A stretch of DNA of 64,000 bases, taken from positions 29,114 to 93,113 of the forward strand of contig CAIKND010000213.1 in the NCBI GenBank assembly GCA_903828675.1, written 5' to 3'. Shown here piece after piece: positions 7,159 through 47,773 of the stretch. Origin of the DNA: an uncultured Acidobacteriaceae bacterium. GTDB taxonomy: Bacteria > Acidobacteriota > Terriglobia > Terriglobales > Acidobacteriaceae. Within the stretch, counting starts at the first letter, position 1, and each line of letters starts with the position of its first letter. A program made the position numbers and the translations under genes. The notes beneath the pieces were generated by a model, which saw only the letters and a list, made by a program, of their open reading frames with translations, made no database searches and was not told the origin of the DNA.

Positions 7159-8115
7159 TCAGGCACCGGTCAGAATGCGGTGCACGATTTCAGCGTTCAG
7201 CTTCACTTCGTCCCGGATGATCGGGAACATCCCCACAAACACCCCATCGGTGGGCTTGATGCTTGAGAACGCTGTGCGAAACGCCTGCTCGATGCCGCCA
7301 TCGCCCACCCGTCCGGCGGCCAGAATCTTGAATGCGAAGCAAGGCTTCGGGGTCTGGCGCATCACTTTGTACATTCGCGCCGGATCACTCTGCAGATAGA
7401 TCTCGCGCGGCATCTCCATCAGGTCGCCGTGCAGTTCCTTCTTCCACTCCTCGTCGTTTCGACTGCGGAAATAGACGCATCCGGCAAAGTAATCCACATC
7501 CCAGCCCTGCTCTTCCACTAAGGCGATCACCGCCGGATTGTGCGTCGCCACGCCGGTCAGCACTCCGGTATCCCGCACCCGCTTGCACCACTCGCGAACC
7601 GTGTTCATGGTGCCGTTCCTGAAAGCCACATCCACAATCTCGCCCTGCCGGTGCAGCGAAAGAGGCTTCAATCTCTTCGCCACCGCCGCCGGGTCTTCGT
7701 CGCTGGAGTCGTGCGCGATCAGGTGCATGATCCCGCCCTCGGCCGTAAACCGCTCCCAGCCATCGGGCGTGTGCCCCTTGTTTGTGTAGTTCATGGCGTT
7801 GATTCCGAAAGCGTTCGCGCGGTGCATGACCTCACTCACGCGCTCGGCCGTGTACCACTCTCTCATCAAGCTGCCGTAGGTGGCGTTGAAGTGAGCGCCG
7901 CCGTTGAAGGGATTGCAACCCATCAGCAGACGGCTAATCTCGACGCCGCCAAACTTCATCTTCGGAACCTGGATTTCGGCCGTCTGCACGGCAGTTGCCA
8001 TCAGAGCGCTCTGGGCAACAGCGCCCGGCCCGGTGGTCAGTACGGTTGCGCCGCCCATCATTCCCATGGCCAGGGCCGCGCCCGACTGCAGAAACTCTCT
8101 GCGCGAATTCGACAT
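7159..8115 (-). CDS. Tat-exported hypothetical protein, aldo/keto-reductase-like TIM barrel
   Basis: MSNSRREFLQ twin-arginine signal; 'ISRLLMGCNPF', 'GVATHNP' and 'FAFKILAAGR' resemble AKR-fold segments; catalytic residues not confirmed. Confidence 0.6.
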   Translation of the reverse strand: MSNSRREFLQSGAALAMGMMGGATVLTTGPGAVAQSALMATAVQTAEIQVPKMKFGGVEISRLLMGCNPFNGGAHFNATYGSLMREWYTAERVSEVMHRANAFGINAMNYTNKGHTPDGWERFTAEGGIMHLIAHDSSDEDPAAVAKRLKPLSLHRQGEIVDVAFRNGTMNTVREWCKRVRDTGVLTGVATHNPAVIALVEEQGWDVDYFAGCVYFRSRNDEEWKKELHGDLMEMPREIYLQSDPARMYKVMRQTPKPCFAFKILAAGRVGDGGIEQAFRTAFSSIKPTDGVFVGMFPIIRDEVKLNAEIVHRILTGA

Positions 8116-8272
8116 GCGGGTCACTCCATTCCAAGATCTGCCCATGCGCCGCGTCGGGCCAGCTTGAAAATCAGCCAATTCTAGCACCGGCCTCATGGCG
8201 CTTGCGTGCCGCGAGGTTGCGCACGTATACCGTCCTTCGCCACAGCGGGACAATGTTGGGAGTCGCCAAACG

Positions 8273-9208
8273 CTATTTATTTTTGCCTGGCAGCATGTTA
8301 ATTAACTTGCTCATCAGCCCCGGCTTCGGCGCCGGAGTTGCCGCCGAGGGCTTGCCTGCAGCCGGTTGAGCTGCCGGCGTGGCGCTCTGCGCCTTTGCCT
8401 CGCCGGACGCGGCCTTGCCACTGCTCGCATTCCCGGCCCCGCCCACAACCTCCCCATGAGCAACCGCTGGCTGCGCCGCTCCGTCTGTTCCGTTCTTCAC
8501 CAGGATCGAGATTCTGCGATTCGACGGATCGTACGGGTTGTTTTTTACACGCAGAAACTGGTCGGCATAGCCGCGCACCTGGGTCACCTGGTCGGAGCGC
8601 ACACCGTCCTGCTGCAGCATCCGCCGCGCGGAGTTGGCCCGGTCCGCCGACAGCTCCCAGTTACTGTAACTGGTGTCGGTGGAGTACGGCGTTGCATCCG
8701 TGTGCCCTTCGATCAGCAATGCATTCGGGAGGGTCTTCAGTTCGGCGCCCAGCAGCGATAAAAGCTGCTGCCCGCTCTCGCTTAACTTGGCGCTGCCACT
8801 CTGGTAAAAGGTCCCGTTCTTGTCCTCCAGAAGTTCAATGCGCAACCCCTCGGCAGTAATGGTGATCTCAATCTGTTTCGCGAGCTTCTCGAGTTCCTTC
8901 TTTGCCTTGATTTCCTGTTGCAGCTTGTCTTTCAGTTTTTGCATGTTATCGCCGGCGGCCACCGAGATGGTTTCGCCCGTCCCGGTCATCGTGGTGCCCA
9001 GCAAACTGCCAGTGCCTTTGGGATCGTTGAAGTAGCCGGCCACAGCTTTCTTTACCTTTTCACTTGAACCCATCAGCCACAACACAATAAACAGCGACAT
9101 CATGGCTGTGACAAAGTCGGCGTACGCCACCTTCCATGCGCCGCCGTGGTGGCCGGCATGGCCGCCCTTCCGCTTGATCACGATAATGGGTTGAGTCTTC
9201 GCTGTCAT
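8273..9208 (-). CDS. motB: Flagellar stator protein MotB
   Basis: WKVAYADFVTAMMSLFIVLWL TM segment with the conserved Asp; OmpA-like IEGHTD...NWELSADRANS...NRRI. Confidence 0.95.
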   Translation of the reverse strand: MTAKTQPIIVIKRKGGHAGHHGGAWKVAYADFVTAMMSLFIVLWLMGSSEKVKKAVAGYFNDPKGTGSLLGTTMTGTGETISVAAGDNMQKLKDKLQQEIKAKKELEKLAKQIEITITAEGLRIELLEDKNGTFYQSGSAKLSESGQQLLSLLGAELKTLPNALLIEGHTDATPYSTDTSYSNWELSADRANSARRMLQQDGVRSDQVTQVRGYADQFLRVKNNPYDPSNRRISILVKNGTDGAAQPAVAHGEVVGGAGNASSGKAASGEAKAQSATPAAQPAAGKPSAATPAPKPGLMSKLINMLPGKNK

Positions 9209-9241
9209 CGCACCCTGCTTCTTTATGCCGGTTGGAGATTG

Positions 9242-10120
9242 TTATGCCGCCACCGCGTCAATTGCGACGTCCTTGTTTTTGCAGTTCTTCTCCATCTCGT
9301 CAAAGCTCGGCCGCACGTTGGCGGGAATCGCTCTCCGCCCCATTTCGATGGCGATCATGGGAGCCGAGCCTTTCAGGAACGAGAGAATCAACACCCGCAG
9401 CACGTGCAGATATTCGTTGTGCTCGTCGGCGGTCTTGCGCATGTTCGCACTCAATGGCCCCACTACGCCGTAGCAAAGCAGAATGCCGAGGAACGTGCCC
9501 ACCAGCGCCGCTGCCACCTTTTCGCCGATCTCTTCCGGTGGCCCGCCCAGCGCGCCCATCGTAATCACTACGCCCAGCACCGCGGCCACAATACCCAGTC
9601 CCGGCAACGCATCCGCCACCGTGGTTAACGCGTCCACCGGAGCCGTCGAGGCGGTGTGATGCACCTCCATGTCCAGTTCCATCATCTGGTCCATGTCGAA
9701 CGGGTCTACCCCGCCCGTGATGGCGGTGCGCAGTGTGTCACAGAGAAAATCCACGGCATGATGGTCGCTAAGAAACTCCGGGTAATTCTTGAAGATCGAA
9801 CTCTCCTTCGGCTTCTCGACATCCATCTCCACACACAGCAGCCCCTCTTTGCGCACCTTGTTGAGAAACTGGTACATCATCTTCAGCGTGCTCAGGTAGC
9901 GCGCCTTGCTAAACGGCGAGCCCTTCAGCACACCCAGCAGTCCCGCGATCACGCCCTTGATAATGTAAAGCGGGTTGGCCACCAGCAGCGTGCCGATGGA
10001 CGCGCCCGCAATAATCAGCAGTTCGGCCGGCTGAACGAGGACCGACATGTGGCCCTTCTCCATCAGAAAGCCGCCGATAACCGCTCCGAACACGACGAGA
10101 ATGCCTACGATGGCAAACAT
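9242..10120 (-). CDS. motA: Flagellar stator protein MotA
   Basis: MFAIVGILVVFGAVIGGF start, QPAELLII, LPGLGIVAAVLGVV, VAAALVGTFLGILLCYG; start trimmed to ATG 10120. Confidence 0.95.
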   Translation of the reverse strand: MFAIVGILVVFGAVIGGFLMEKGHMSVLVQPAELLIIAGASIGTLLVANPLYIIKGVIAGLLGVLKGSPFSKARYLSTLKMMYQFLNKVRKEGLLCVEMDVEKPKESSIFKNYPEFLSDHHAVDFLCDTLRTAITGGVDPFDMDQMMELDMEVHHTASTAPVDALTTVADALPGLGIVAAVLGVVITMGALGGPPEEIGEKVAAALVGTFLGILLCYGVVGPLSANMRKTADEHNEYLHVLRVLILSFLKGSAPMIAIEMGRRAIPANVRPSFDEMEKNCKNKDVAIDAVAA

Positions 10121-11004
10121 GCATGCCTCCCTGGCGCAGCCGTTACGCAGTTTCCACCCGCATGGATGCTGGCTTCCATGCCTTGCTGCGCTCTCTCGAG
10201 CAGTAGCGCCAGCGTCTCGCCCATGCTGTGGTCGGCCTGGGCCGCTCCGATACTTACGGTGAGCGAGACGCGGTCGCCCCACCACCTGAAGTCAGCAGTC
10301 CTGGCCAATCCCGCCAGTGTCCGTGCATGGCCGGCGAGAATCTCAGGCGTGCGCTCGTACGAGATAATCAGAAACTCGCCATCGCCCCAGCGGCCCATTT
10401 CCTCAGCCGGCCGCAATCCCTGCGCCAGCGCCTTTTGCACCTTGGCCAGCATCGCCTCGCAGGCGCCGGCTCCGTGGGTCTTGTGCAATGCCGGCGCTTG
10501 ATCGACACCGATCCACATCACCCCAAACGGAGGGCCGCCGCGAACAAAGTCCTCATATTCACACTGCAACCTGTCTTCAAGGTCAGTCTGGCTTGCCTCC
10601 ACCGACTGGTTATCCCCAGTCTCCCCATGCGGAAGCGCGTCCAGGCTCTCCGCCGGATGAAAGACAATCGCACTGCCGATCCGCGTGCCCAGACCGTCGC
10701 GCAATACCAGAATCCGCGCGATCGCCTGCACCTCGTGGCCCAGCTTATGCCGCGCTCTGACCAGCTCCCCGCGGCGTGTTTGCGCCCCCGTCCCCGGCTC
10801 CGTATCCTCGTGCCGCGTCCGCTCCAGCAGTAGAGGTTCCAGTTCCTCGGGAACCGGCCGTGCCAGCAGGTCCACGCCCGCGTAACCTGTGATGGCCTCC
10901 GCGGCAAGGTTCCAGAACATCACCTCGCCCTCGACGTCAACCAGCGCGATGCCGTCCGGAAGACTCTCCAGCGCAGATTCAAGCATCTCCGTGCGGTCCA
11001 TCAT
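10105..11004 (-). CDS. PAS + degenerate GGDEF-domain protein
   Basis: PAS-like 'LESLPDGIALVD..FWNLAAEAITGY'; GGDEF fold with signature altered to RWGDGEF and C-terminal VSLTVSIG; AAAGGA RBS before ATG 11004; 16-bp overlap with motA. Confidence 0.85.
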   Translation of the reverse strand: MMDRTEMLESALESLPDGIALVDVEGEVMFWNLAAEAITGYAGVDLLARPVPEELEPLLLERTRHEDTEPGTGAQTRRGELVRARHKLGHEVQAIARILVLRDGLGTRIGSAIVFHPAESLDALPHGETGDNQSVEASQTDLEDRLQCEYEDFVRGGPPFGVMWIGVDQAPALHKTHGAGACEAMLAKVQKALAQGLRPAEEMGRWGDGEFLIISYERTPEILAGHARTLAGLARTADFRWWGDRVSLTVSIGAAQADHSMGETLALLLERAQQGMEASIHAGGNCVTAAPGRHACLPS

Positions 11005-11106
11005 TCCATTCCTTTCAAATGAGCTTCGCCACCCTCGCATCCGCGTGCCGCGCCCTGACGCACAGCAATTTCAAACTCACGCGAACTGAGAACCCGCATA
11101 ACTGCT

Positions 11107-11133
11107 TCATCGGCACACCCCTGCCTAACTTCA
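11107..11133 (-). promoter_or_regulatory. Sigma28 (FliA)-type promoter for the PAS-GGDEF/motA/motB operon
   Basis: Minus strand reads TGAAGTTA-N11-GCCGATGA versus consensus TAAAGTTT-N11-GCCGATAA, about 100 bp upstream of the first gene. Confidence 0.7.
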
Positions 11134-11391
11134 TTGCCCCGCACTGCAATGAGAGCGTTGGAAATCGCTCATGAAAAGGGTGTAACGAACAGCCGGCGCT
11201 CGCCCGCAGAGACGCGCAGTGGCAGATGAGAGTGCTGGTGGAGCCTGTGCACAAGGAACTGATGGCCCCACTCTCCTTAGGAACATCCAAGGACTGTGTA
11301 GCCTGCGTCATGTTGCTCAGGATGTTTTAAGGCATTGCCTCAATATCCGTCGTTTGGTGCCCTCAATGCTCCGTCGCACCAACCGCGCCAA

Positions 11392-12012
11392 CTACTTGCT
11401 GTCGGCAAGACCCGCATGAACCACGTAGCGTTCTGGCGCTGAACCAATAAAACTGAACGGGAAGCAGGTCACAAGCGTAAGCGAAGATCCGCTTGTGATC
11501 GACAGGATGCCGGTATCGTTGGGAGCCGTGATCTGCACCCAATCTACTTTGTAATGCGACAGGCCCGCCGGAGTCTGAATCTGAATCTCATCACCAGCCC
11601 GAACACCTCTCAGCCCGCGAAAGAACGTGTCGCGGTGACCGGCTATTCCGATGTTCCCCGACCCGCCGGGCAGCGCCGTTCCTTCAATATGGCCCGCACC
11701 CAGCCGCAACGTTCGCGATGTAGTCCCCTGTAGAATTGCCACCTTCAACCCAAGCCGGGGTATCGCAATGCGGCCCAGAACATCGCCTTCCCTGGCGGCA
11801 AGCCGAGGCACACTCGCTTTGAGATGTTCTTCGGCATGTATCTGTTGCTCGAGGGAATCGCTTGCGGCTTTTTGGAAGAGCCTTGCGTTCAGCAGTGTGA
11901 GCGCAACATAACAGAGCGCAAAGGCACCTGTGACAAAGAAGAATCTCTGTATCCAGACCAGAAACCTGCGGCTCTGCTTCGTAAACATCTCCTGGTCAGT
12001 CATGGTTATCAT
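11392..12012 (-). CDS. Class D-like sortase
   Basis: N-terminal TM anchor; GHIEGTALPG, IAGHRDTFFR (His), LTLVTCFPF (Cys) and APERY (Arg): all three sortase catalytic residues present. Confidence 0.9.
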   Translation of the reverse strand: MITMTDQEMFTKQSRRFLVWIQRFFFVTGAFALCYVALTLLNARLFQKAASDSLEQQIHAEEHLKASVPRLAAREGDVLGRIAIPRLGLKVAILQGTTSRTLRLGAGHIEGTALPGGSGNIGIAGHRDTFFRGLRGVRAGDEIQIQTPAGLSHYKVDWVQITAPNDTGILSITSGSSLTLVTCFPFSFIGSAPERYVVHAGLADSK

Positions 12013-13031
12013 GGCCGGCCATTCTGGTTCCCGGCGCCGGGTGTTGACGGCACGGTGAACCCTGCCCTGGTTCGAACCGACAAGTGCCCATGCCCCGGAG
12101 CGCTTGCCCTTATATCCAGAACCCGATAGCTGCCGTCGAGTTTGGCAATTGTGGGGACGTAGGCCAGAGAGTATTGAGTGCGAATATCGCGAGCGATCTC
12201 TTCGCAGATTGAGGTAATCTCTTTTGAAGATTCGGGGAAGAAAGCCTCTCCGCCTGTCTCTCGCGCAAACCGCCTGAGAACTGCCGGATTCCGATCTGCG
12301 TCCTGCTCGTCGAAGATGCCGATCACATAGATGATTGCGGAAGACTGCTTGGCCATGCCGATCACCTGCGCCAAACTGCGCTTGCTCGCATCATCGCCGC
12401 CGTCGCTCAAAAGGATCAGGACCTTCTTGTCGCGATTGCCCAGCCTCAGATGATCCAGAGCTGCGGCCATCCCGTCGTAGAGCGCGGTCTGGCCGATAGT
12501 CCTGATTTGAGATAGCGCCTTTTGCAGCACATCCGGCTGGTCGGTGAATGCAATATTCGCCGGGAGGCCAAGCGATACGGTGTCATTGAAGTTGACAACA
12601 AATATCTGATCCAAAGGGTTGCTCGAGCGGGCAAATGCCAGTGCCGAGGCAATCACGTCAGCGCGCTTCGGCTGCATGCTCCCGCTGTTATCTACAACAA
12701 TCCCGACTGTAACTGGAATATCTTCGTGACTGAAATATTTAATTTGTTGAAGTACGCCATCTTCATATATTTGAAAATTATCTTTACTAAGTCCGGACAC
12801 TAACGCATTGTGGCGATCCAGTACGGTCGCACTTAGCATCACAATGTCGGAATTCAGCTTGAGTGTGTAGTCGTCGCCGGAGTTACTCTGCGTCGATTGC
12901 ACATTCTGCGCCCTGATCACGCAGCTCATGTTCATAGCACTCATGAGCGCAAGCAGGCACAAGAAGGCTCCGCCTCCTGAGTTCTTGAAGCGGAATCGGG
13001 CAATGAACAGGTTTGGACACCGCATGCCCAT
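12009..13031 (-). CDS. VWA domain protein (acidobacterial VWFA type), secreted
   Basis: MIDAS DNSGS, GQTALYDG, LILLSDGGDD, RFARETGGEAF and IARDIRTQYSLAY; signal-like N-terminus; 4-bp overlap with the sortase start. Start uncertain (13025-13064). Confidence 0.88.
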   Translation of the reverse strand: MGMRCPNLFIARFRFKNSGGGAFLCLLALMSAMNMSCVIRAQNVQSTQSNSGDDYTLKLNSDIVMLSATVLDRHNALVSGLSKDNFQIYEDGVLQQIKYFSHEDIPVTVGIVVDNSGSMQPKRADVIASALAFARSSNPLDQIFVVNFNDTVSLGLPANIAFTDQPDVLQKALSQIRTIGQTALYDGMAAALDHLRLGNRDKKVLILLSDGGDDASKRSLAQVIGMAKQSSAIIYVIGIFDEQDADRNPAVLRRFARETGGEAFFPESSKEITSICEEIARDIRTQYSLAYVPTIAKLDGSYRVLDIRASAPGHGHLSVRTRAGFTVPSTPGAGNQNGRP

Positions 13032-13137
13032 CACTCCCTTGTCGCTTCGCGCCGCTACGGTCATTTCAATCGCCCGTCCAGCCCCTCAATGCAAATCTGA
13101 AACAGGAACACTCGTTGCCCGCACATGCGCTTGAATG

Positions 13138-13173
13138 AAAACAGAGGGCGATACGTGCGTACCGCCCCTGTTT
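13138..13173 (-). terminator. Possible terminator hairpin between the LPXTG gene and the VWA gene
   Basis: Imperfect inverted repeat AAACAGAGGGCG...CGCCCCTGTTT. Confidence 0.45.
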
Positions 13174-13235
13174 GACCTATTGTTCCCGGCTAACTCAATA
13201 GCTGCGCTTTCCACCGGGTCCGACCCTCGGCCAAT

Positions 13236-13931
13236 TTAGGCGCTGCGCTTCAACAGTCCGAAGAGCGCAAGGCCGCTGCCCAGTGCGAGGAATCCGAACA
13301 GCCCCATCAAGGGAAGATTGCTGGCTGTCTTGGGAAGAGAGGCCATAAGCACCGGCTCAGGTTTTACTTGCGGCACGGGAGGAGCTTCAACAACCGTGGC
13401 TTCATCAACTGTGTCTCCAGCCGGGCCGATCGCTTCAACGCGTGCAGTATTCAGATCGTCGACGGTTGAGGATGTTGTTACTACAGGTGTGGAAAGAACG
13501 GCCTCGTTGGTTTCCTTGGCCAATTCGATTGCCCTGGATCTTTCATACACAAACTGCTCGCCCCACTGGTGGCCGGGATAGAACCACGCTCTCAATGCTT
13601 CAGGCTGTCCGGCGGGCCGCTCCCTGAATGTGATGACGGTCTTGTCCGTTGGCTTCAAGCGATAGTTGGGAATCGCGAGAATGGTGGTGAATACATGCGT
13701 GCCTTCTTCGTTTGTGATCTGCACGATGTGGCGGTCGCTCAGCGAGTTCATCACCATGAACACATAAGTACCAGCAGGCAGAAGATGTTCGCCCACGCCC
13801 GGAACTTCCACCGGCCCGCTGAAGGTGATAACTGTCTTCCTGTTCCATTCGTCGGCCTTGGCTTTCGGCGCAACGAGTAAGCAAAGTACGGTAAGGCACA
13901 GTCCTGTTCCTAATCCCTTGAGCAGTGTCAT
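13236..13931 (-). CDS. Secreted protein with LPXTG-like (LPKTA) sorting signal
   Basis: Sec signal ending KAKA-D; C-terminus 'LPKTASNLPLMGLFGFLALGSGLALFGLLKRSA' = motif + hydrophobic helix + basic tail; LPKTA encoded at 13323-13337. Confidence 0.88.
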   Translation of the reverse strand: MTLLKGLGTGLCLTVLCLLVAPKAKADEWNRKTVITFSGPVEVPGVGEHLLPAGTYVFMVMNSLSDRHIVQITNEEGTHVFTTILAIPNYRLKPTDKTVITFRERPAGQPEALRAWFYPGHQWGEQFVYERSRAIELAKETNEAVLSTPVVTTSSTVDDLNTARVEAIGPAGDTVDEATVVEAPPVPQVKPEPVLMASLPKTASNLPLMGLFGFLALGSGLALFGLLKRSA

Positions 13932-14222
13932 TGTTTCTCCAATTGTTTCTCCGACCTGCTCGCACGGGGGTTGTTATGTTGCGAGGACTCTCATGTTGCC
14001 GGTTTCATAAGAGATTCAACGCCGGAACGTCCGGCAGAGTTCTATACCGTGGAGCACAGTTCAAGGTTCAGTCTCATTCATAGGGAAAGGCATTACTGGC
14101 TAATAGAGACCGCACTTACAAATGACCTTTCTATCTAATCTAAGTTGGAAACAGGCAGTGTAATAGCAGCAGAGCGTTGATTCTAATAGGACTACTTGGG
14201 ATATCCATATCTTTAAAAGTCT

Positions 14223-14251
14223 CTGGATGACGGTTCCCGACCGTCATCCAG
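14223..14251 (-). terminator. Intrinsic terminator after pepA
   Basis: 11-bp stem CTGGATGACGG / CCGTCATCCAG with 7-nt loop, followed by AGACTTTT on the minus strand. Confidence 0.7.
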
Positions 14252-14269
14252 GGACTTATCACCAGCTAT

Positions 14270-15775
14270 TTAATAGCTCCGCACCCACTCCAGAATCGAG
14301 CGCACAGCAACTCCGCTCGGGCCTTTGGCGATGTACGGACGCGAATCTTCCACCCAGGCCATACCCGCAATGTCGAGGTGGATCCACGGCGTGTCTTCGG
14401 CAAAAACTTTCAGGAACTCGGCAGCGGTAATCGCGCCACCCCAACGGCCGCCGGTGTTTTTTATGTCGCCGATGTCGCTCTTGATCATCTCGGCATACTC
14501 GTCGCCTAGCGGCAGCCGCCAGAATTTTTCACCTGAAATCGCCAGCGCCGACTCGAATCTGCCGTAGGTTTCGTCGTCATTCGAAAAAGCGCCCGCATTC
14601 ACCATGCCCAGAGCCACAACGCAGGCACCGGTCAGGGTAGCCGCGTCAATCAGGTGGGTCGCACCCAGTTGGCGTGCATAGGCCAGCCCATCAGCCAGCA
14701 CAAGCCGCCCTTCGGCATCCGTATTGATGATCTCAATCGTCTTGCCGGACATGGCGGTCTGCACGTCACCGGGCTTTTGCGCCTTGCCGTCAGGCATATT
14801 CTCAGCCGCGCACACAATTCCAATCACACGCACCCTGGGCTTCAGCAAAGCAATCGCGCGCATCGCGCCGATCATCGCCGCACCGCCCGCCATGTCGTAC
14901 TTCATCTTTTCCATGTTGTCGCCGGGCTTGAGGGAGATTCCGCCGGAATCGAAGGTGATGCCCTTACCGACCAGCCCCAGAATTGGACCCTCGTTAACCC
15001 CTTCCGGCTCGTACCGCAACACGATCAGCGCCGGTGGCTCCTCGGAGCCCTGGGAGACGCTCCAGAACGCGCCCATCTTCAGTTCGTGCAGTTTCTCAGT
15101 GGAGTGGACTTCGCATCCGAGCCCAACCTCAGCCGCCATCTCGGCAGCGCGCTGGCCCAGAATGGTTGGCGTCAGCTTGTTGCCCGGCTCGTTCACCAGC
15201 ACGCGGGTAAAGTTCTGGCTCTCGCCCACAATCACGCCCTCGGCAAACGCGGCCTCCAGGACAGCCTTATCAGGGCCGGCCTTGGCAATCAGCGTGAAGG
15301 TTTCGACGCTCACATCCTTGCGATCGCTGCGATAGGTGTCAGGATCGAAATCGCCCACAAACGCGCCTTCGACAGCTGCCCGCATGCACGCGTCCGCCGC
15401 CAACGCCCCGGCTTCAGGCAGAACAAGCACCAGTTCCTTGATGAAGCGTGGCTTCCCATAGCGCACGGCGGTCCCGGCCGCATTGCGCACATGGTTCGCC
15501 GTGGCCTTGGCCTGCTTGCCCAGCCCCACAATCAGCAGCCTTTTCGCCGCGATCCCTTGAGGGGCGTGCAGCAGCAGCGTCTCGCTGGCGCCGGCCTTGA
15601 ACTCGCCGCTTGCCAGTACAGCAGCGGCAGCGGCCGTGACAGCCGCGTCGGCGGTCAGAAGCACCGGTTGCGGTTTCGCTTCCGGCCCTTTGCCAGTTTG
15701 GGTGTCGACGGCCACCACGGCCAGCAGTTCAGTCTCAATCTCAAAAGCATTCGCAAAAGATAGTTGGGTCCGCAT
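14270..15775 (-). CDS. pepA: Leucyl aminopeptidase (M17)
   Basis: LVGKGITFDSGG, MKYDMAGGA and INTDAEGRLVLAD M17 signatures. Confidence 0.95.
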   Translation of the reverse strand: MRTQLSFANAFEIETELLAVVAVDTQTGKGPEAKPQPVLLTADAAVTAAAAAVLASGEFKAGASETLLLHAPQGIAAKRLLIVGLGKQAKATANHVRNAAGTAVRYGKPRFIKELVLVLPEAGALAADACMRAAVEGAFVGDFDPDTYRSDRKDVSVETFTLIAKAGPDKAVLEAAFAEGVIVGESQNFTRVLVNEPGNKLTPTILGQRAAEMAAEVGLGCEVHSTEKLHELKMGAFWSVSQGSEEPPALIVLRYEPEGVNEGPILGLVGKGITFDSGGISLKPGDNMEKMKYDMAGGAAMIGAMRAIALLKPRVRVIGIVCAAENMPDGKAQKPGDVQTAMSGKTIEIINTDAEGRLVLADGLAYARQLGATHLIDAATLTGACVVALGMVNAGAFSNDDETYGRFESALAISGEKFWRLPLGDEYAEMIKSDIGDIKNTGGRWGGAITAAEFLKVFAEDTPWIHLDIAGMAWVEDSRPYIAKGPSGVAVRSILEWVRSY

Positions 15776-15936: not shown

Positions 15937-16224
15937 ATGAAATATTCTGTCACAAATTCGGAATATGCTACTGCCCGCCTGAACAACAACGGCCGCATCG
16001 TCATCCCGGCGGAGATCAGGCGGGAGATGGGTCTCAAGCCCGGCGATGCCGTCGTCATGATATTGGAAGACGGTGTCCTACGGATCGAGTCGCACCGCGC
16101 CAGAATTCGCAATATCCAGGATGAATTCAAGAAATTGGCCCGGCCTGGGGCTCTCGCGTCGGACGAACTCGTAGACGAGCGCCGCGAAGAAGCGGTCCAG
16201 GAAATGGAGGAGTGGCTTGGATAA
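15937..16224 (+). CDS. AbrB/MazE/SpoVT-family antitoxin (VapB-like)
   Basis: 'RLNNNGRIVIPAEIRREMGLKPGDAVVMILEDGVLRIES' swapped-hairpin DNA-binding motif; overlaps the PIN gene. Confidence 0.88.
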   Translation: MKYSVTNSEYATARLNNNGRIVIPAEIRREMGLKPGDAVVMILEDGVLRIESHRARIRNIQDEFKKLARPGALASDELVDERREEAVQEMEEWLG

Positions 16225-16603
16225 GCTAGCCGTCCTCGACTCCTCGGCGATTCTCGCAGTCATCTTCAGGGAGCCCGGAAGCGAGGCTGTCATCGATCTG
16301 CTTCAGGGAGGATTGCTCAGCGCCGTGAATCTCGCCGAAGTCCACGCCCGCCTGCTCCTGGGCGGGTCCACCGCCGGGCTTGCCTGGGACCGTCTTCAGA
16401 GCCTGGGATGCGAGATATGCCCATTTGACAGCGCACAAGCTCGTCTGGCCGCCGAGCTGACCGGCAACACCCATTCCCAAGCCCTCTCCCTCGGGGCACG
16501 CGCTTGCCTGGCCCTGGCCATCGAGCGCAGCGCTACGGTCTACACCACTGACCGCGCATGGAAGAATCTTGCTTTGGGAATTGACGTCGAAGTGATCCGA
16601 TAA
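16217..16603 (+). CDS. vapC: PIN-domain toxin (VapC-like)
   Basis: VLDSSAILA, SAVNLAEV, LSLGARACLALA and YTTDRAW PIN motifs. The usual Asp in 'LSLGD' is Ala here. TTG start with GGAGGAG RBS. Confidence 0.85.
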   Translation: MDKLAVLDSSAILAVIFREPGSEAVIDLLQGGLLSAVNLAEVHARLLLGGSTAGLAWDRLQSLGCEICPFDSAQARLAAELTGNTHSQALSLGARACLALAIERSATVYTTDRAWKNLALGIDVEVIR

Positions 16604-17181: not shown

Positions 17182-17380
17182 AGCAAAACATCCTCGAATC
17201 TTCATCCTAGCATTGGCGCGAGTTTTACCCGCGCTCGAGTGGGGCTTTGCTAAAATGAGGCATCGTTGGTTGAAGAATCTTTCCGACAGGAAATGCGTCA
17301 GCATGTGCGTCCGGGGCAGCCAAGGCAGCCCTCAGGGACCCGGCGGAGAATCCGGGCCGGCCAAGACGCCTGGGAGTACG

Positions 17381-19837
17381 ATGAACCGCCGCGCTCAAGC
17401 TCCGGTCCCTTCCGGATCCGTTCTATTTAAAGCCGCTTCCCGGATTGCGCTGGTTGGCATTCTGGTGGTCTTTGCCCTGGCCTGTGTGCGTTTATACGCC
17501 GAGTCGGCCAACTCCTTCTTCAAGCGCGGCCAGACCGCTGAAGCCCGCGAAGACTACGATGCCGCCTTTGACTATTTTCAAAAGGCCAATGCCAAAGACC
17601 CAAAAGATCTGGCCTTCCGCACCGCACTCTATCGGGTACGCGTCTCCGCCTCTGCCATGCACATGACCAAGGGGCGCAAGCTGCTGCAGGCGGGCGACGA
17701 GCAGGGTGCACTCGCCGAGTTCCTTCATGCCGCCCAAATCGATCCAGGCAACGAAGCAGCACAGCAGGAGATTGCACAGGCGCGCGCCAAGAGCGGCGAG
17801 GCCTTTCAGCGACCCGAGATCGCCATGCCCGGGCGGGCAGATCTTCAGGCGCAGATCGACTCCATGGCTGCTCCCACCGAACTCAAGCCGCTCTCCAGCG
17901 AGCCCCTTACCCTGCACATGACCGAGGACGCCAAGGTCATTTATCAGGCGGTCGGCAAAGCCGCCGGGATCAATGTGCTCTTCGATCCGGACTTCAATTC
18001 CAAGCGCGTCCAGGTGGACCTGAATAACGTGTCGCTGGTCGACGCGCTGCGCATTGTCGGCACCATGTCCAACACCTTCTGGCGCCCCGTTACCACCAAT
18101 ACGATCTTTGTGGCCCAGAACACCCGCGTCAAGCGTACTGAACTAGACGAGCAGGCAGTCCAGACCTTCTACCTGTCCAACGCCTGGCAGCAAAACGATC
18201 TCAACGACGTGCAAACCGCCCTGCGCAACGTGCTGCCCAATGCCAAGGTCTACGGCGTCGCCAGCCAGAACGCCATCGTCATGCGCGGGACGCCCGACGA
18301 GTTGTTGTTGGCCCAAAAGCTCATCAACGATCTCGACAAGGCGCGCGCAGAAGTCGTGGTAGACATCGCGGTCATGGAAGTGAGCAGAAACTGGGAGCGC
18401 ACCCTCGGTATCGCCTGGCCCAGCAGCGTGAACGTAGCCATGCAGTCCACATCCACCTCCAGTTCTTCCTCCTCCTCGTCCAGCACCACGACCAGCAGCA
18501 CCACTACCCCCTCCCTCTACGATCTGGCCCACCTCAAGGCCACCAACTTTGCCGTCACCATCGGCTCGGCCACGCTCAATCTGCTCATGACCGACTCGAA
18601 TACCAAGGTCCTGCAGAACCCGCGCATTCGCGCTACCGACGCGCAGAAGGCGACCATGAAAATCGGCTCTAGGATCCCGATCGCCACCGGTTCCTATCAG
18701 ACCGGCGCAGCCACAGCGGTTGTCAGCTCGCTTGTCAATACTCAGTTCCAGTACCAGGACGTCGGCGTAAATATCGAGATGACGCCCACCGTCCACTATG
18801 ACCGCGACGTAACCCTGAAGATCAAAATCGAAGTCACCTCGCAGAGCGGTTCCGTAACCATCAGCGGCGTAACCGAGCCCATCCTCTCGCAGCGCGTCGT
18901 CGACCAGGTCATCCGCCTCCGCGAGGGAGAAGCCAGCATCCTCGGCGGCATCCAGAACAATCAAAACCAGGTAAGCTGGACCGGAATCCCAGGAATGGGG
19001 ACAATCCCCGTTCTCAAATACATCTTTGGCTCCAAAGACCGCACGGTCCAGGACGACGAGATTGTCTTCGTGGTGGTGCCTCACGTAGTCCGTTCACAGG
19101 AACTGGGACCAGCCAACCTTCGCGCCATCGACACCGGTTCTGGCCAGTCCATCGAACTGCGTCACGTTGAGGGCCAGGGGGCGGATACCAAGCCCATGCC
19201 TGCACCTGTTCCCGCTGTTCGCCCCGCCGCGCCTCCGCAATCCACAATAGGCACAGTCCCAGGCCAGAGTGCGGAGGCCGCGGTGCCCGCAGCGATGGCG
19301 CAGATGAAAACAGCCGCTCAGGCCACCGAGAATACGCCGGCGCGGCCCCCATCTCCTGAGCCGGCGCCGGCTCCAGCTGAACCACCCGCTCCCCCTGCTG
19401 CGACACCCAATCCATCTGCTGGAACTGCGGTCACCCTCTCGTTTACTCCGCCCACCGGCCTATTGGCTGCGGGCTCCAGCTTCCAGGTTCCGCTTGTCCT
19501 CAGCGGCGGCACGGATATAGCCTCGATTCCCTTGCAACTTCAGTACGATCCGGCCAAGCTTCAACTGGTCAACGTCGCCGCCGGAGACCTGCTCAACAGG
19601 GACGGGCAGGCCGTTGCTCTTATCCACCGTGACGACGGACCCGGCACCATCACCGTCGTTGCATCACGTCCTCCGGGTACGGTCGGCATCACCGGCACCG
19701 GCGTGGTCTGCGTACTCACGTTCCAAGCCAAAGTCTCAGGAGAGACCGCGCTGGATATCACGCGCGCGGGAGCTGTAAACAGTGCTCAACTGCAGTTGCC
19801 GGCCAACAACGCGCATGTCAACATTCTGGTCAAATAG
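17381..19837 (+). CDS. Secretin (GspD/PilQ family) with N-terminal TPR-like region and C-terminal cohesin-like domain
   Basis: GINVLFDPD, IVMRGTP, AEVVVDIAVMEV, LQNPRIRATDAQKA and FQYQDVGVNIEMTPTV secretin motifs; Pro/Ala linker; cohesin-like 'FQVPLVLSGGTDIASIPLQLQYDPAKLQLVNV'. Confidence 0.9.
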   Translation: MNRRAQAPVPSGSVLFKAASRIALVGILVVFALACVRLYAESANSFFKRGQTAEAREDYDAAFDYFQKANAKDPKDLAFRTALYRVRVSASAMHMTKGRKLLQAGDEQGALAEFLHAAQIDPGNEAAQQEIAQARAKSGEAFQRPEIAMPGRADLQAQIDSMAAPTELKPLSSEPLTLHMTEDAKVIYQAVGKAAGINVLFDPDFNSKRVQVDLNNVSLVDALRIVGTMSNTFWRPVTTNTIFVAQNTRVKRTELDEQAVQTFYLSNAWQQNDLNDVQTALRNVLPNAKVYGVASQNAIVMRGTPDELLLAQKLINDLDKARAEVVVDIAVMEVSRNWERTLGIAWPSSVNVAMQSTSTSSSSSSSSSTTTSSTTTPSLYDLAHLKATNFAVTIGSATLNLLMTDSNTKVLQNPRIRATDAQKATMKIGSRIPIATGSYQTGAATAVVSSLVNTQFQYQDVGVNIEMTPTVHYDRDVTLKIKIEVTSQSGSVTISGVTEPILSQRVVDQVIRLREGEASILGGIQNNQNQVSWTGIPGMGTIPVLKYIFGSKDRTVQDDEIVFVVVPHVVRSQELGPANLRAIDTGSGQSIELRHVEGQGADTKPMPAPVPAVRPAAPPQSTIGTVPGQSAEAAVPAAMAQMKTAAQATENTPARPPSPEPAPAPAEPPAPPAATPNPSAGTAVTLSFTPPTGLLAAGSSFQVPLVLSGGTDIASIPLQLQYDPAKLQLVNVAAGDLLNRDGQAVALIHRDDGPGTITVVASRPPGTVGITGTGVVCVLTFQAKVSGETALDITRAGAVNSAQLQLPANNAHVNILVK

Positions 19838-32522: not shown

Positions 32523-35336
32523 TTACCGCTTCGCGCCGCCCCCTTGCGCGTGCAGATAGCGCCCGGCGAACTCCAGAAACACAGGCCAGTTCGGCCCCGG
32601 CGTGTGGCCAAACTGGTGCTGGCGGAAGGCCAGATCGCCCTCGACCAGTCCGGTTTGCATGGCTGGAAACTGCGCCGTCCCCATGTCCTTTTTGCCCAAC
32701 AATCGATAAACCGGCCCCGCTCCCACTGCGCCAAGGAATTCGCCCTTGGGATCGGCCCACTCGTCTCCTGCGGTATCCGAGCCCACGCCGATAAACACCG
32801 GCCGGGGAGCGCAGAGCGCAATCAGCTCATGGGCGTCTACGGGCAGATCGCCGGTGGTCAGCGGACCGGCGTACTTCATGAAATTGCCCGCCATCCAATA
32901 GTAGAAAGTGGGCGCGGCCGCCAGATTTTCAAGCTGCTCGCCGTAAACATGGCGGTAGGGCTTCACCCCTCCTGTGCCGGACGAGCTGATGTAGGCCACG
33001 GCGAAGCGCGAATCGTAAGCCATCGTGACCAGCGCCGTTTTCCCGAATCTCGAATGGCCCTCGATGCCCACCCGCTTCGCATCCACAGCCTTGTCCGTCT
33101 CCAGGTAATCCAGCGCCCGGCTTGCGCCCCAGGCCCAGGCGCGCAGCGTTCCCCAATCCTCGGGACTGCGCGGATGGCCCTTGTTCACCAGGCCGATAAT
33201 GCCGGCATCGAGTCCCGCGCCGTTGTCGTCCTGAAAACTGGTCGGCAGCAGAATCGCATAGCCCCATCCCTTGGCCAGCACCTGCTGCTGCCACGCGGGT
33301 TCCGGGTTGCCGGGTCCGCCGGGCAGCATTTCGGGAATGCTCTTGGCGATGGCCGCCATAAACTCCGGGCTGAATGCCAGTTCCATGACCACCGGAACCG
33401 GCCCAGCAGCATTGGCCGGCGTGGTCAGCAGCAGATCGATATTGACCTTGATCGCGGGGTAGGCTGAGTTGTCCACATGGCCCGCCAGCCGCTTGGTCAC
33501 CACCGGCACGTTGCCAATGGTTTCCCGCTTGCTGCTGGTCACCTCCCAGGTCACCTTGGGCAGATGCGCGGGCACGCGGCCCAAAACATCGCGGTCGAAG
33601 TCCTCGACAATCTCGGGCCGGCGCTGGGCCCACCACACCTTGGCCGAGGTAACCGGTTTGCCGTTTTTCAGCACCAGCGGTTCAGGCAGCTTGGGGTAGG
33701 GATTCGCCTTCGACTCATCGTAATTCACGGCGTTGGGCGATTTGGGATCGTGGCTGGCGGCGGGCCGCAGTTGCTTGATGCCCAGCCGATCCATCATGAG
33801 CTGGTGGTCCTTGATTGCCGCATCCCGCTCAGCCAACTGTTCCTGGTTGGGCACGGACGGGCCTTGCGCAGCCCCTTGGATGTGCAGATAGCGCCCGGCA
33901 AAGGTCAGGAACGTGGGCCAGTTCGGCCCCGGCGTGTGCCCGCCCGCGTGCTGGCGGAAGGCCACGTCTCCATCGATCAGCGCCGTCTCCATGGGCGGAA
34001 ACTCGGTCGTGCCCATGTCCCGCTTGCCCAGCAGCCGATAGACCGGACCCGCACCTGCCGCCGCCAGAAACATCCCCTTGGCGTCGATCCAACCGTCCCC
34101 TTTAAGCGCGCCGCCCGAGATGAACACCGGCCGCGGCGCGCACATCGCAACCAGCTCATGCGCATCCACGGGCATGTCGCCCGGCGTCAGCGGGCCGGCG
34201 TATTTCATAAAGTTGCCGGCCATCCAGTGATACTCGTTGGTGGCGGCCACGTTGCCCACCTGCTCGCCGAAGATGTGCCGGTAAAGTTTGGCCCCGCCCT
34301 CGCCCGAAGAACTGACATAGGCAATCGCCAGCCGCGGTTCATAGGCCATCGCCACCAGCGTGGCCTTGCCGTAGCGGGAGTGTCCTTCCATGCCTATCTG
34401 CTTCGCGTCCACCGCTCTGTCGGTTTCAAAGTAATCAATCGCCCGGCTCGCGCCCCAGCCCCAGGCCTTCAGCGTGCCCCAGTCGTCCGCCGCCCGCGGC
34501 TGGCCCTTGTTCACCAGGCCGATAATGCCCTCGGTCAATCCGGCGCCGTTGTCCGCCTGATAGCTGGTGGGTACCAGTTCCGCGTAACCCCAGCCTCTTG
34601 CCAGCACCTGTTGCTGCCAGGTCGGCCCCTGATTCCCCGCCCCGGCGCCAAACATCTGCGGAAAGCGCTTCGCCATCGCCGCCATGAACTCGCGGCTGAA
34701 TCCGAACTCCATAATCACCGGAACCGGCCCTTTTGCATCGGCCGGTGTCGTCAGCGTCAGGTCGATATCCACCGTGATCGCGGGCCACGCCGAATTATCC
34801 ACATGGCCCAAAAGCCGCTTCGTCACCACCGGCACGTCGCCGTTCTTTTCCCGCGTCGTGCTCATCACTTCCCACAGCACCTGGGGCAGGTTCGCGGGTG
34901 TGCGGCCCAGGATCTCACGATCGAAATCCTCTTGAATCTCCCCCCGCCGCTTGCTCCACCACATCTGCTCCGAGGCAACCTTTTCGCCGCTCTTGAGCAC
35001 CAGCGGATCGGGCAGGTTGGTGTAGACATCGGCCTTCGACTCGTCGTAGTTGGCCGCGTTGGGCGCATTGGCTTCGCCGCTCACCCCGGGCCGCAGCACC
35101 TTGATGCCCAGCAGGTCCATCATGCGCTGGTGGTCCTTTTCCGATGCCGCCTGGATGGCCAGCTGTTCCGGCGTGGGCGCCGGACGCGCGGGCGCAGCCT
35201 GGGCAGGAGCGGGCGCAGCAGCGGGCGCTGCCTGAGCCGCCAGCCACGATACCCAAGAACCTGCAAGAAGGGCCAGCACCAGCACTGCCAGCCTGACCGG
35301 AGCAGTCAACCGCAACATCGTCCGCAACATCATCAT
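32523..35336 (-). CDS. Secreted esterase with two tandem CE15 (glucuronoyl-esterase-like) domains
   Basis: Two homologous halves with GHSRYGK and GHSRFGK nucleophile motifs, SSG(E/T)GG...GEQ and RQH..GHTPGPNWP. Start trimmed to MMMLR (35336); the ORF-track extension runs through a repeat element. Confidence 0.85.
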   Translation of the reverse strand: MMMLRTMLRLTAPVRLAVLVLALLAGSWVSWLAAQAAPAAAPAPAQAAPARPAPTPEQLAIQAASEKDHQRMMDLLGIKVLRPGVSGEANAPNAANYDESKADVYTNLPDPLVLKSGEKVASEQMWWSKRRGEIQEDFDREILGRTPANLPQVLWEVMSTTREKNGDVPVVTKRLLGHVDNSAWPAITVDIDLTLTTPADAKGPVPVIMEFGFSREFMAAMAKRFPQMFGAGAGNQGPTWQQQVLARGWGYAELVPTSYQADNGAGLTEGIIGLVNKGQPRAADDWGTLKAWGWGASRAIDYFETDRAVDAKQIGMEGHSRYGKATLVAMAYEPRLAIAYVSSSGEGGAKLYRHIFGEQVGNVAATNEYHWMAGNFMKYAGPLTPGDMPVDAHELVAMCAPRPVFISGGALKGDGWIDAKGMFLAAAGAGPVYRLLGKRDMGTTEFPPMETALIDGDVAFRQHAGGHTPGPNWPTFLTFAGRYLHIQGAAQGPSVPNQEQLAERDAAIKDHQLMMDRLGIKQLRPAASHDPKSPNAVNYDESKANPYPKLPEPLVLKNGKPVTSAKVWWAQRRPEIVEDFDRDVLGRVPAHLPKVTWEVTSSKRETIGNVPVVTKRLAGHVDNSAYPAIKVNIDLLLTTPANAAGPVPVVMELAFSPEFMAAIAKSIPEMLPGGPGNPEPAWQQQVLAKGWGYAILLPTSFQDDNGAGLDAGIIGLVNKGHPRSPEDWGTLRAWAWGASRALDYLETDKAVDAKRVGIEGHSRFGKTALVTMAYDSRFAVAYISSSGTGGVKPYRHVYGEQLENLAAAPTFYYWMAGNFMKYAGPLTTGDLPVDAHELIALCAPRPVFIGVGSDTAGDEWADPKGEFLGAVGAGPVYRLLGKKDMGTAQFPAMQTGLVEGDLAFRQHQFGHTPGPNWPVFLEFAGRYLHAQGGGAKR

Positions 35337-35463
35337 CGGGAACCTCGTTTTCAGTGCATCTCCAAAGATGGAGAGCGAAACGGCCCAAGCATAACGATTT
35401 AGTTCGATGTTGGGCAAGCGCCGGCCTGAGTTGAGCGGGTTCCGTTTAGCCGCCCAAACTTCG

Positions 35464-43643: not shown

Positions 43644-43901
43644 GCGGCAATTGACCCGGTTTGGAGGTCTTGCCGCAGCTTCGGCCCGCGACGGAAACCC
43701 AAATGCAAACGGGGCTTCGCGGACAAATGCTTTCAATGGAGGGAAGAGGGTCGCGGAAAAACAGGGGTGCGGTTCGGATCGTGAGACCCGTAGCCAGTGA
43801 GATCAACCCGATTTTGCCTGCTGCCAGAGCGTCGTGGAGCGCGTCTCAACCAAGGTGGCTCACTTTTGCTATGCTGAGCCTTGCAACTGTCTTGGTTAGG
43901 G

Positions 43902-46442: not shown

Positions 46443-46475
46443 GCCGTTTTCAACTCGATTGTGAAGAATTGATTA

Positions 46476-46594
46476 GGTGCCCCCGGTGCCTCGCTTTTGG
46501 GCACCGGGGATATCAATACGTTGGACGGCTGACCACCCTTGACCTCGACATCACAGTGCCCCATCCTTGAATCGCTCTTGATCCAAGGGTGGGA
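46476..46594. repeat. Two REP-like palindromes between lptD and the dsbA-like gene
   Basis: CCCCGGTGCC / GGCACCGGGG stem (46481-46509) and GTGCCCCATCC...GGGTGGGA copy (46556-46594). Confidence 0.75.
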
Positions 46595-46759
46595 GAGCAT
46601 AGGTCCCCATCTCAACCATCCGCCGCCTGACAGAACATGCTCTTGCGGGTTGCGTTTCACTCCCGTCCGCGTCCACTCACTGTGGGTGGTAGAAATCGTG
46701 CGCTTCGTCAGGTTCGAACCGTCCCCCGCTGGAGTATCCTTTCCAGAGAGGACTCTCAT

Positions 46760-47689
46760 TTGTCGCATATACGCTTAATGGCCGCCCTGCTGGCGGTTTG
46801 CCTTACCGCTGGGTGCAAAGCCCAGACCGCTGTCAATGACCCGTTGCTCCAGCGGCACATCGAGGTCATGGTCCGCTCCCAGTTCAACCTGCCCCCCAGC
46901 TTCGATGTAATCCTCGGCGCGCGCACACCCAGCCAGATGCCGGGCTATGACGCATTACCCGTTACGCTGACCCATGGAGCCAAGTCCCAGGTGGTCAACT
47001 TCCTCATCTCCTCCGACGGCAAGACGCTGGCCCGCCTGGAGACCTTTGACCTCTTGAAGGACCCGTCCTTCACCATCAATGCCGGCGGCAGGCCAGTCCG
47101 CGGAAATCCCGCGGCCAAGGTCACCATCATCAACTTCGACGACCTCGAGTGCCCTTACTGCGCCCGCATGCACCTGTCGCTGTTTCCCGCCACCCTGGAT
47201 CGCTACAAAGAAAAGGTACAGGTCGTCTACAAAGACTTTCCGCTCATGGAAATCCACCCCTGGGCCATGCATGCCTCCATTGACGCCAACTGCCTCGCGG
47301 CCCAGAGCGGCGATGTCTATTGGACCTACGTGGATTACCTTCACAGCCACGCCGAAGAGGTCAACGGCAAAGACCGGAATGCCTCCCAAAGCTTCGCGAC
47401 GCTTGACCGCATCGCCCGCCAGGAGGCCGTCCTGGGCAAACTGGACAGCGGCAGGCTCGACGCCTGCCTCGCCAAGCAGGACGAGACCCAGGTCCGCGCC
47501 TCGCTCAATGAGGGTCTCGCACTGGGACTCGAAGGAGCACCCGCTCTCTTTATCAATGGAGAGAGGATTCCCGGAGCCGTGCCGGAAGACCAGCTTTGGA
47601 TCGTGATCGACCGCGCTCTGCGTGCCGCGGGCGAACAGCCACCCCCCGCCCAAGCCGCGCCGACGCTCGCTGCGGGAGCCGGTAATTAA
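46760..47689 (+). CDS. DsbA-family thioredoxin-fold lipoprotein
   Basis: LTAGC lipobox, 'INFDDLECPYC', YKDFPL..IHPWA, GAPALFING. Confidence 0.88.
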   Translation: MSHIRLMAALLAVCLTAGCKAQTAVNDPLLQRHIEVMVRSQFNLPPSFDVILGARTPSQMPGYDALPVTLTHGAKSQVVNFLISSDGKTLARLETFDLLKDPSFTINAGGRPVRGNPAAKVTIINFDDLECPYCARMHLSLFPATLDRYKEKVQVVYKDFPLMEIHPWAMHASIDANCLAAQSGDVYWTYVDYLHSHAEEVNGKDRNASQSFATLDRIARQEAVLGKLDSGRLDACLAKQDETQVRASLNEGLALGLEGAPALFINGERIPGAVPEDQLWIVIDRALRAAGEQPPPAQAAPTLAAGAGN

Positions 47690-47773
47690 GAGCCGGTTTC
47701 TCTATCGCCGTACCGGCCTATGGATATATCCTTGGATGCCGGGGCCTTGTTCGGCCCCACAGGAGAGATCAGG

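Follow-up and report, generated by a model that had tools for sequence, protein, structure and literature searches.

A conserved three-gene cassette of Terriglobia encodes a dedicated sortase, its predicted substrate and a VWA-domain partner, and may fix the substrate to the periplasmic cell wall

A 64,000-nucleotide (nt) stretch of DNA from an uncultured Acidobacteriaceae bacterium (hereafter 'the window') carries, on its minus strand at positions 11392-13931, a cassette of three genes that code for a sortase substrate (SUB), a protein with a VWA domain (VWA) and a sortase (SRT). This cassette is real, widespread and distinct both from the class GN systems of Gram-negative bacteria and from the class D systems of the Bacillota. 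We hold it to be somewhat better than an even bet that it is a dedicated sortase cassette of the Terriglobia that fixes SUB to the meso-diaminopimelic acid (meso-DAP) wall in the periplasm, with VWA acting as a partner. In Gram-negative bacteria, dedicated sortase cassettes have been recognised in silico (TIGR03784/TIGR03788; PMC3237569), and diderm sortases have been described as 'not well characterized' (PMC8225981). A preliminary description of the window had placed three co-oriented genes at this site, and the minus-strand open reading frames (ORFs) matched them exactly.

The gene for SUB (positions 13236-13931, minus strand) codes for a protein of 231 amino acids. The N-terminus, MTLLKGLGTGLCLTVLCLLVAPKAKA followed by DEW, is a Sec-type signal peptide covering residues 1-26 (...LLVAPKAKA/DEW). 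A beta-rich passenger (residues ~27-180) and a short Pro-rich linker (residues ~181-198) follow, and then the sorting signal (positions 13236-13337, minus strand), which was read from the sequence as LPKTAS-NLPL, a 22-residue hydrophobic helix, KRSA and the stop codon. The C-terminus, LPKTASNLPLMGLFGFLALGSGLALFGLLKRSA, thus presents a sorting motif, a hydrophobic stretch and a basic tail, and SUB as a whole fits the tripartite architecture of LPXTG-type signals, with a signal peptide, and with motif, helix and basic tail at the extreme C-terminus. Export by the Sec pathway and an LPKTA-transmembrane-basic tail, both put forward in the preliminary description, can therefore be read directly from the ORF. 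The sortase is predicted to cut SUB between Thr202 and Ala203. The hidden Markov model for LPXTG-type signals (PF00746/TIGR01167) is weak and gave no match on SUB at E<=0.01; PF00746 matched 14 of 35 SUB homologues (best E 1e-4).

Every one of the 33 SUB homologues from genomes retained the sorting tail, as did about 76 of the 76 complete homologues from metagenomes, which bears out the expectation that LPKTA would be conserved in sortase-linked orthologues. The motif of the family can be written [L/M]P-x-T-A-S-x-(L/M/A)P(L/F). Its first x position was K in 42 sequences, Q in 10, A in 10 and another residue in a few; the residue after the motif Thr was Ala in 67 of 74 sequences (91%) and the next one was Ser in 71 of 74. 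In three SUB homologues (loci L051, L056 and L076) the motif is LPKGASSLPL: the scissile Thr is replaced by Gly, which may mean that cleavage occurs at a changed site or that the substrate is inactive. Substrates of other types were also seen beside sortases of the same genus and of a related family (L028:6537-7454, L031:6495-7427 and L023:4810-5562). One of these alternative substrates, 305-310 amino acids long and encoded downstream of the sortase, has a polyproline stalk and ends in LPKTGSSLPL; another is a low-complexity protein of 250 amino acids with LPKTAGDLPL. Terriglobia therefore put the same tail on several types of passenger.

The passenger domain, in turn, is found with and without the tail. 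About 80 of the best 150 distant passenger-domain representatives carried such a tail, while a subset of those distant representatives ended after a P-x-G-x-E-V segment, with no helix. Relatives lacking both LPxTA and a transmembrane segment were P0166, P0183-P0185, P0197, P0206-P0208, P0211 and P0214. The tail therefore behaves as a suffix on a domain that is able to stand alone. The metagenome scan for SUB homologues yielded close, tailed homologues only.

The search for SUB homologues gave at least 8,000 scored matches, including sequences from soil and peat metagenomes, and the passenger domain alone matched 3,293 sequence clusters (50% identity), with E<=1e-10 for 1,989. No Pfam family matched the passenger at E<=0.01, and NCBIfam likewise assigned it to no family; DUF2911 was weakly matched in 5 of 35 SUB homologues (best E 0.0022). 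AlphaFold2 modelled full-length SUB with a mean predicted local distance difference test score (pLDDT) of 64.1, and the mature part, modelled from an alignment of greater diversity, with a mean of 74.8. The model of mature SUB shows a beta-rich domain followed by a helix, and a conserved P-x-G-x-x-V segment forms a further strand. Of all ten-residue blocks in the model, the one containing this segment is the most confident (mean pLDDT 90); the segment is separated from LPKTA by only about 18 residues rich in Pro. For neither SUB model did Foldseek find a PDB match (best E 0.33 for the full length and 1.6 for the mature part), and querying the PDB sequences with a profile of the SUB passenger returned noise only.

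The sortase gene (positions 11392-12012, minus strand) codes for 206 amino acids. Membership of the sortase superfamily is clear, with 96.4 bits on PF04203 (cut-off 26.6) and 80.9 bits on TIGR01076 (cut-off 39.35). A transmembrane anchor lies near the N-terminus (residues ~17-42), and His126, Cys183 (within TLxTC) and Arg195 align to the catalytic residues of solved sortases, in agreement with the earlier view of a membrane-anchored enzyme with an intact triad. The His-Cys-Arg triad was invariant in 28 SRT orthologues. The search for SRT homologues returned 3,018 matches. The best solved relatives were 4d70 (Clostridium perfringens) and 2ln7 (Bacillus anthracis), both of class D, and NCBI names the Terracidiphilus orthologues of SRT 'class D sortase'. 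Among the class models, SRT scored highest against NF058671 (class D, LPxTATN-specific), with 143.3 bits for a cut-off of 140. It fell short of the cut-offs of TIGR03784 (class GN; 95.9 bits, cut-off 158.25) and NF033747 (class E; 90.7 bits, cut-off 160). NF058671 was matched in 16 of 41 related genomes and exceeded its cut-off in seven of the 41; the control for this model exceeded the cut-off in B. subtilis, and the model therefore centres on Bacillus. A second sortase subfamily (family f2; ...TLVTCYPTYWIGPAPKRLIV...) was seen in relatives (L032-L041), with no recognisable tailed substrate within 3 kb; at L033:5114-7102 the f2 sortase forms the C-terminal part of a 662-residue protein.

VWA is encoded between SUB and SRT (positions 12009-13064, minus strand) and is 351 amino acids long, although its start may be internal, since other assemblies annotate 317 amino acids. 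It scored 49.6 bits on PF00092 and 201.2 bits on TIGR03436 (cut-off 81.25), which places it in TIGR03436, the VWFA family of acidobacteria. These matches and an N-terminal export signal uphold the idea of a secreted VWA protein; VWA has no sorting tail. Its metal ion-dependent adhesion site (MIDAS) is complete (D125-x-S127-x-S129, T193 and D221) and was invariant in 24 cassette-linked orthologues. The genome encodes about eight TIGR03436-like VWA paralogues, this one being the only one adjacent to the sortase. The ATG of SRT overlaps the VWA stop codon (ATGA), and in all 23 loci checked the sortase start overlapped the 3' end of VWA, either as ATGA or by 17 nt. This overlap points to coupled translation of VWA and sortase.

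The host genome (6.39 Mb in 241 contigs, 100% complete) contains one sortase, as judged by profile and homology searches, one copy of SUB, as judged by homology search, and one clean LPxT[AG]-transmembrane-basic tail among all six-frame ORFs. The counts of sortases and tailed proteins called for in the preliminary description thus came to one of each, and the two therefore form a dedicated pair. One enzyme with one target encoded side by side is what defines a dedicated system in the sense of Haft (PMC3237569). The gene order SUB-VWA-SRT was found in 20 of 26 named GTDB loci, from Terracidiphilus, Candidatus Sulfotelmatobacter, Acidipila, Bryobacterales and other Terriglobia. Inspection of 20 sortase loci of related genomes identified a SUB homologue beside the sortase in seven, with VWA between them in four of the seven. 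In metagenomes, 36 of 80 loci were informative, that is, had at least 2.4 kb of sequence downstream of SUB; the full cassette was present in 32 of these, while one had the sortase only, one had VWA only and two had neither. The proposal of a dedicated sortase system in a diderm, which the preliminary description made without settling on an acceptor, is thus supported both by the one-to-one pairing and by a three-gene order conserved across the Terriglobia. Clustering of all ORFs from 46 loci gave SUB, VWA, SRT and antisense shadow ORFs only, with no fourth conserved gene, and the genes flanking the cassette in the window (PepA, PAS-GGDEF and MotAB) were not kept beside it in other species. The cassette therefore moves as one block of three genes.

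The spacer between SUB and VWA contains an RNA hairpin (positions 13139-13172, minus strand), 67 nt 3' of the SUB stop codon. It reads GGGGCGGTAC-GCAC-GTATCGCCCT, followed by CTGTTTTCAT, with the 10-bp stem-loop at positions 13145-13168, and a scan for terminator-type structures marked it as terminator-like. A homologous hairpin was found 21-121 nt 3' of the SUB stop codon in 14 other loci, with the consensus GGAGGCGGTAC-GCGA-GTATCGCCTCC and usually a GNRA loop; most of the remaining loci had another strong hairpin at the same place. The first set of hairpins had been picked for having a stem, and a covariance model (R1) was built to remove that bias. In a search space of 82 sources (759 kb in total), R1 matched 38 loci, all on the SUB strand and just downstream of SUB, and nothing elsewhere; in the 64-kb window the match was single. 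Among 21 sequences not used in model building, 96.1% of the cells pair, against 39-65% in slid controls, and 6 of 11 pairs had changed on both sides (compensatory changes); matches found by a model lean toward the structure of that model, which makes this covariation evidence good, not perfect. Rfam matched no family in the region 10900-14400. A search of the host genome found the hairpin to be unique, and its interpretation as a generic genome repeat was rejected, the sole similar site (C196:7898) lying inside a sulfatase-like coding region. At two loci (L042 and L058) the hairpin follows SUB where VWA and sortase are missing downstream, and it therefore belongs to the 3' end of SUB. It is likely to be an attenuator or a 3' stabiliser of the SUB message; that it raises SUB over the VWA-sortase message is a guess. 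Taken with the overlap of the VWA and sortase genes, the hairpin would imply abundant SUB and coupled production of VWA and sortase.

The window also codes for outer-membrane markers: LptD (positions 43881-46442), a secretin (positions 17213-19837), and SurA-like and DsbA-like proteins. The cell therefore has an outer membrane. The preliminary description had drawn the same conclusion, rightly as regards LptD and the secretin; what it took for ExbBD is, as far as could be found, a MotA/MotB pair (positions 8273-10285; PF20560 and PF13677). As for the wall, the MurE of the host passed two equivalog models for meso-DAP ligases (519.3 bits on NF001126, cut-off 373; 488.8 bits on the second, cut-off 476) and carries the DNPR motif. 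In B. anthracis, the class D sortase SrtC links substrates with an LPNTA motif to cross-bridges of DAP (PMC8225981). Since the class-D-like enzyme, the LPxTA signal and the meso-DAP-type MurE fit together, Thr202 would on the simplest reading become amide-linked to wall meso-DAP, leaving SUB in the periplasm.

From these features we infer how SUB is cut, what it is attached to and that the product lies in the periplasm, together with what VWA and the hairpin do, as follows. SUB would leave the cytoplasm by the Sec route and stay anchored in the inner membrane through its C-terminal helix. The class-D-like sortase would cut LPKT/AS at Thr202/Ala203, forming a thioester on Cys183, and would then transfer the substrate, through the carboxyl group of its Thr, to the free amine of meso-DAP, either in lipid II or in a peptidoglycan stem peptide. 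The beta-rich domain of SUB would end up covalently attached to the periplasmic cell wall through its short Pro-rich linker. VWA, made in step with the sortase, would be a metal-dependent partner that most simply binds SUB or a ligand of SUB. The hairpin after SUB may let the SUB message outnumber the VWA-sortase message.

Several points weigh against fixation of SUB to the wall in this manner. To our knowledge, a thin periplasmic wall would be unusual for sortase products, and we know of no identified acceptor for a diderm sortase. The modelled fold of the SUB passenger offers no hint of function. The two LPKGAS loci L051 and L056 keep VWA and sortase (the sequence of L076 ends too early), and SUB and sortase occur without VWA at L022, L030, L063 and L085; VWA is therefore a frequent partner, not an obligatory one. 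The U-tract of the hairpin is weak in most loci, which is why its effect on the transcript ratio is offered as a guess. The class of the enzyme is also affected: the general class D model, NF033746, was the second-best class model with 125.7 bits, under its cut-off of 165, and the cassette-linked orthologues of SRT scored 130-152 bits on NF058671, on both sides of the cut-off of 140. Because of this spread, and because SUB scored 16.6 bits on the LPxTATN signal model NF058670 (cut-off 32), we place SRT in a group that is sister to the class D enzymes of the Bacillota and, like them, prefers Ala after Thr, rather than treating it as a plain member of that class.

Other fates for SUB were considered. 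In a pilus-like ligation, Thr202 would be joined to a lysine of VWA, or of another SUB, to give a heterodimer or a short polymer. Such a product would resemble the pili of Gram-positive bacteria, whose tip adhesins have VWA/MIDAS domains; VWA domains are present in the sortase-assembled tip pilins RrgA, GBS104 and SpaC. The third conserved gene of the cassette is that for VWA, whose translation is coupled to that of the sortase, and VWA has three invariant lysines (K133, K214 and K228). Ligation is nonetheless unlikely: SRT scored 80.3 bits against the class C (pilus) model NF033745 (cut-off 160), no DP(W/F/Y) lid motif was seen in SRT residues 43-80, and no YPKN was found in SUB or VWA. Further, VWA has no sorting signal of its own and is missing from several loci that keep SUB and sortase, and the cassette includes no outer-membrane conduit.

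It is equally improbable that SRT acts chiefly by hydrolysis, as a protease whose acceptor is water, and frees SUB, perhaps bound to VWA, into the periplasm or for export. A signal peptide alone would give a soluble periplasmic protein, so that a tail and a dedicated enzyme would be a costly way to reach the same end; virtually all close homologues retain the tail, and the class D relatives of SRT are true transpeptidases. What speaks for release is that sortases hydrolyse their substrates when the nucleophile is absent, and that the passenger relatives ending after P-x-G-x-E-V suggest a domain able to work unanchored.

Transfer of SUB to an amino group outside peptidoglycan, on a lipid (phosphatidylethanolamine or ornithine lipid), lipopolysaccharide or exopolysaccharide, would leave the protein lipid- or glycan-anchored. 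The acceptor of any diderm sortase is not known (PMC8225981), and other C-terminal tripartite signals of diderms (PEP-CTERM and GlyGly-CTERM) have non-wall fates (PMC3237569). We know, however, of no precedent for a PF04203 sortase with such acceptors, and a meso-DAP wall, which matches both the LPxTA signal and the class-D-like enzyme, is the simpler fit; we regard this possibility as quite improbable. Finally, the idea of an assembly artefact, or of an inactive relic newly acquired from a Gram-positive donor, is scarcely credible, because, for all that the GC content of the cassette (55.2%) lies slightly under the genome mean (58.4%, standard deviation (SD) 2.7%) and its flanks vary between species, at least six independent assemblies agree, the GC content is within 1.2 SD, triad, MIDAS and motif are invariant across 40-70% sequence divergence, and the homologues, which number thousands, all lie on Acidobacteriota-type contigs.

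The independent evidence on the contig itself is as follows. The same order of the cassette genes was found in at least six independent metagenome assemblies, and an identical SUB protein was present on contigs of independent JGI and ENA metagenome assemblies. In the independent assemblies the genes are ordered secretin, SmpB, PIN/MazE, PepA, SUB, VWA, SRT, PAS-GGDEF, MotA and MotB, identically to the window; the contig is therefore not chimeric, which settles a concern raised in the preliminary description. That description had also judged the locus to be AT-richer by eye. The mild rise is real, but it is not significant, since 13% of genome windows of the size of the cassette have an equal or lower GC content. 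Horizontal acquisition or chimerism was thus rejected on the agreement of independent assemblies and on a GC content within the range of the genome.

Upstream of SUB lies a 338-nt gap. A promoter consensus scan marked one site in it (positions 14180-14207, minus strand; TGGATA, a 16-nt spacer and TAGAAT), and shuffled sequence gave as many; the site is a weak candidate that could possibly be the promoter of the cassette. The genes directly downstream of the sortase code first for a PAS-GGDEF protein and then for the MotA/MotB-type stator pair (positions 8273-11040, minus strand), an order that is kept in the independent assemblies of this species and not in other species. On the other side, between PepA and SmpB, a MazE/AbrB-type antitoxin (95 amino acids) overlaps a PIN-domain toxin (128 amino acids) in a VapBC-like arrangement (positions 15937-16603, plus strand). 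The secretin (positions 17213-19837, plus strand; 874 amino acids) has PF00263, Secretin_N and TPR domains and a C-terminal cohesin domain (PF00963, 53.9 bits, residues 745-859), which is unusual for a secretin; in other assemblies a prepilin-type N_methyl gene lies 3' of it. LptD, a DsbA-like thioredoxin protein and a SurA-like peptidyl-prolyl isomerase follow one another at positions 43881-48850 (plus strand), in what resembles an outer-membrane biogenesis cluster. Two long ORFs had no Pfam match at E<=1e-5: positions 7159-8253 (minus strand, 364 amino acids) and 33477-35402 (plus strand, 641 amino acids). The latter overlaps an ORF of 1012 amino acids on the opposite strand and may therefore not be a gene.

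No description of a SUB-VWA-SRT cassette was found in the searchable literature, and NCBIfam covers the enzyme class and the VWA family with its models and has none for SUB. The preliminary description had spoken of an undescribed system; this holds for the cassette and its substrate, for which no published description was found, but not for the enzyme class, which NCBI has already named and for which NCBIfam models exist. What role sortases have in outer-membrane bacteria has been a question ever since the enzymes came to notice in Shewanella and related bacteria, and the cassette offers a compact and widespread test case: with one enzyme, one substrate and one partner, it leads to the concrete prediction that Thr202 is amide-linked to meso-DAP. 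If true, this would add a third enzymatic route for the covalent fixing of proteins to the wall in diderms, and one of the many VWA proteins in the acidobacterial family would gain a function. At the level of RNA, the hairpin contributes a modest element of regulation that can be tested. A bolder version, which we think doubtful, would see in the cassette a new covalent fixture of the diderm envelope, in which wall-bound SUB, with a novel fold, and the MIDAS-bearing VWA, made one-to-one with the enzyme, link the wall to another layer or capture a ligand. Such a fixture would be a sortase-built analogue, in function, of Braun's lipoprotein for the Acidobacteria, its subunit ratios set by the family-specific hairpin, which might also be a protein-binding or processing site.

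Among known systems, the class D sortases of the Bacillota, namely B. anthracis SrtC with BasH/BasI (2ln7), C. perfringens SrtD (4d70) and B. subtilis YhcS with YhcR/YfkN, resemble the cassette in fold, His-Cys-Arg triad, best sequence matches and Ala after Thr. They also have few, operon-linked substrates and a meso-DAP wall, which is the acceptor of B. anthracis SrtC. The cassette differs from them in its diderm host, where the product must stay under the outer membrane, in its signal (LPxTAS-x-LPL rather than LPxTATN), in SRT scores below the cut-off of NF033746 and at the edge of that of NF058671, and in its unrelated passenger domain, conserved VWA partner and RNA hairpin. With the class GN systems of marine proteobacteria (TIGR03784/TIGR03788; Shewanella and Colwellia) it shares the one enzyme-one target arrangement, a Gram-negative host, the involvement of VWA and an acceptor that is not known (PMC3237569, PMC8225981). 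It is set apart from them by SRT falling below the cut-off of TIGR03784, and by VWA scoring 19.8 bits against the model of their VIT/VWA target (cut-off 551.65). In class GN, moreover, the VWA protein itself bears the LPXTG, while here VWA is tail-less and a separate small protein is the target.

Two further comparisons concern the proposed product and the hairpin. Braun's lipoprotein is joined to meso-DAP by L,D-transpeptidases, so that a periplasmic protein is linked through its C-terminal residue. The outcome proposed for SUB would be alike, with the C-terminal residue of a periplasmic protein on wall meso-DAP; the enzyme differs, being a sortase-fold Cys transpeptidase rather than one of the YkuD type, as do the linking residue (Thr after cleavage instead of a C-terminal Lys) and the protein, SUB having no lipid anchor. 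The hairpin, for its part, recalls the intercistronic ratio-setting hairpins of pilin and puf operons, where a stable stem-loop also stands after the gene of the abundant component and before the enzyme genes. Unlike these, the SUB hairpin belongs to no Rfam family and has a conserved sequence and GNRA loop of its own.

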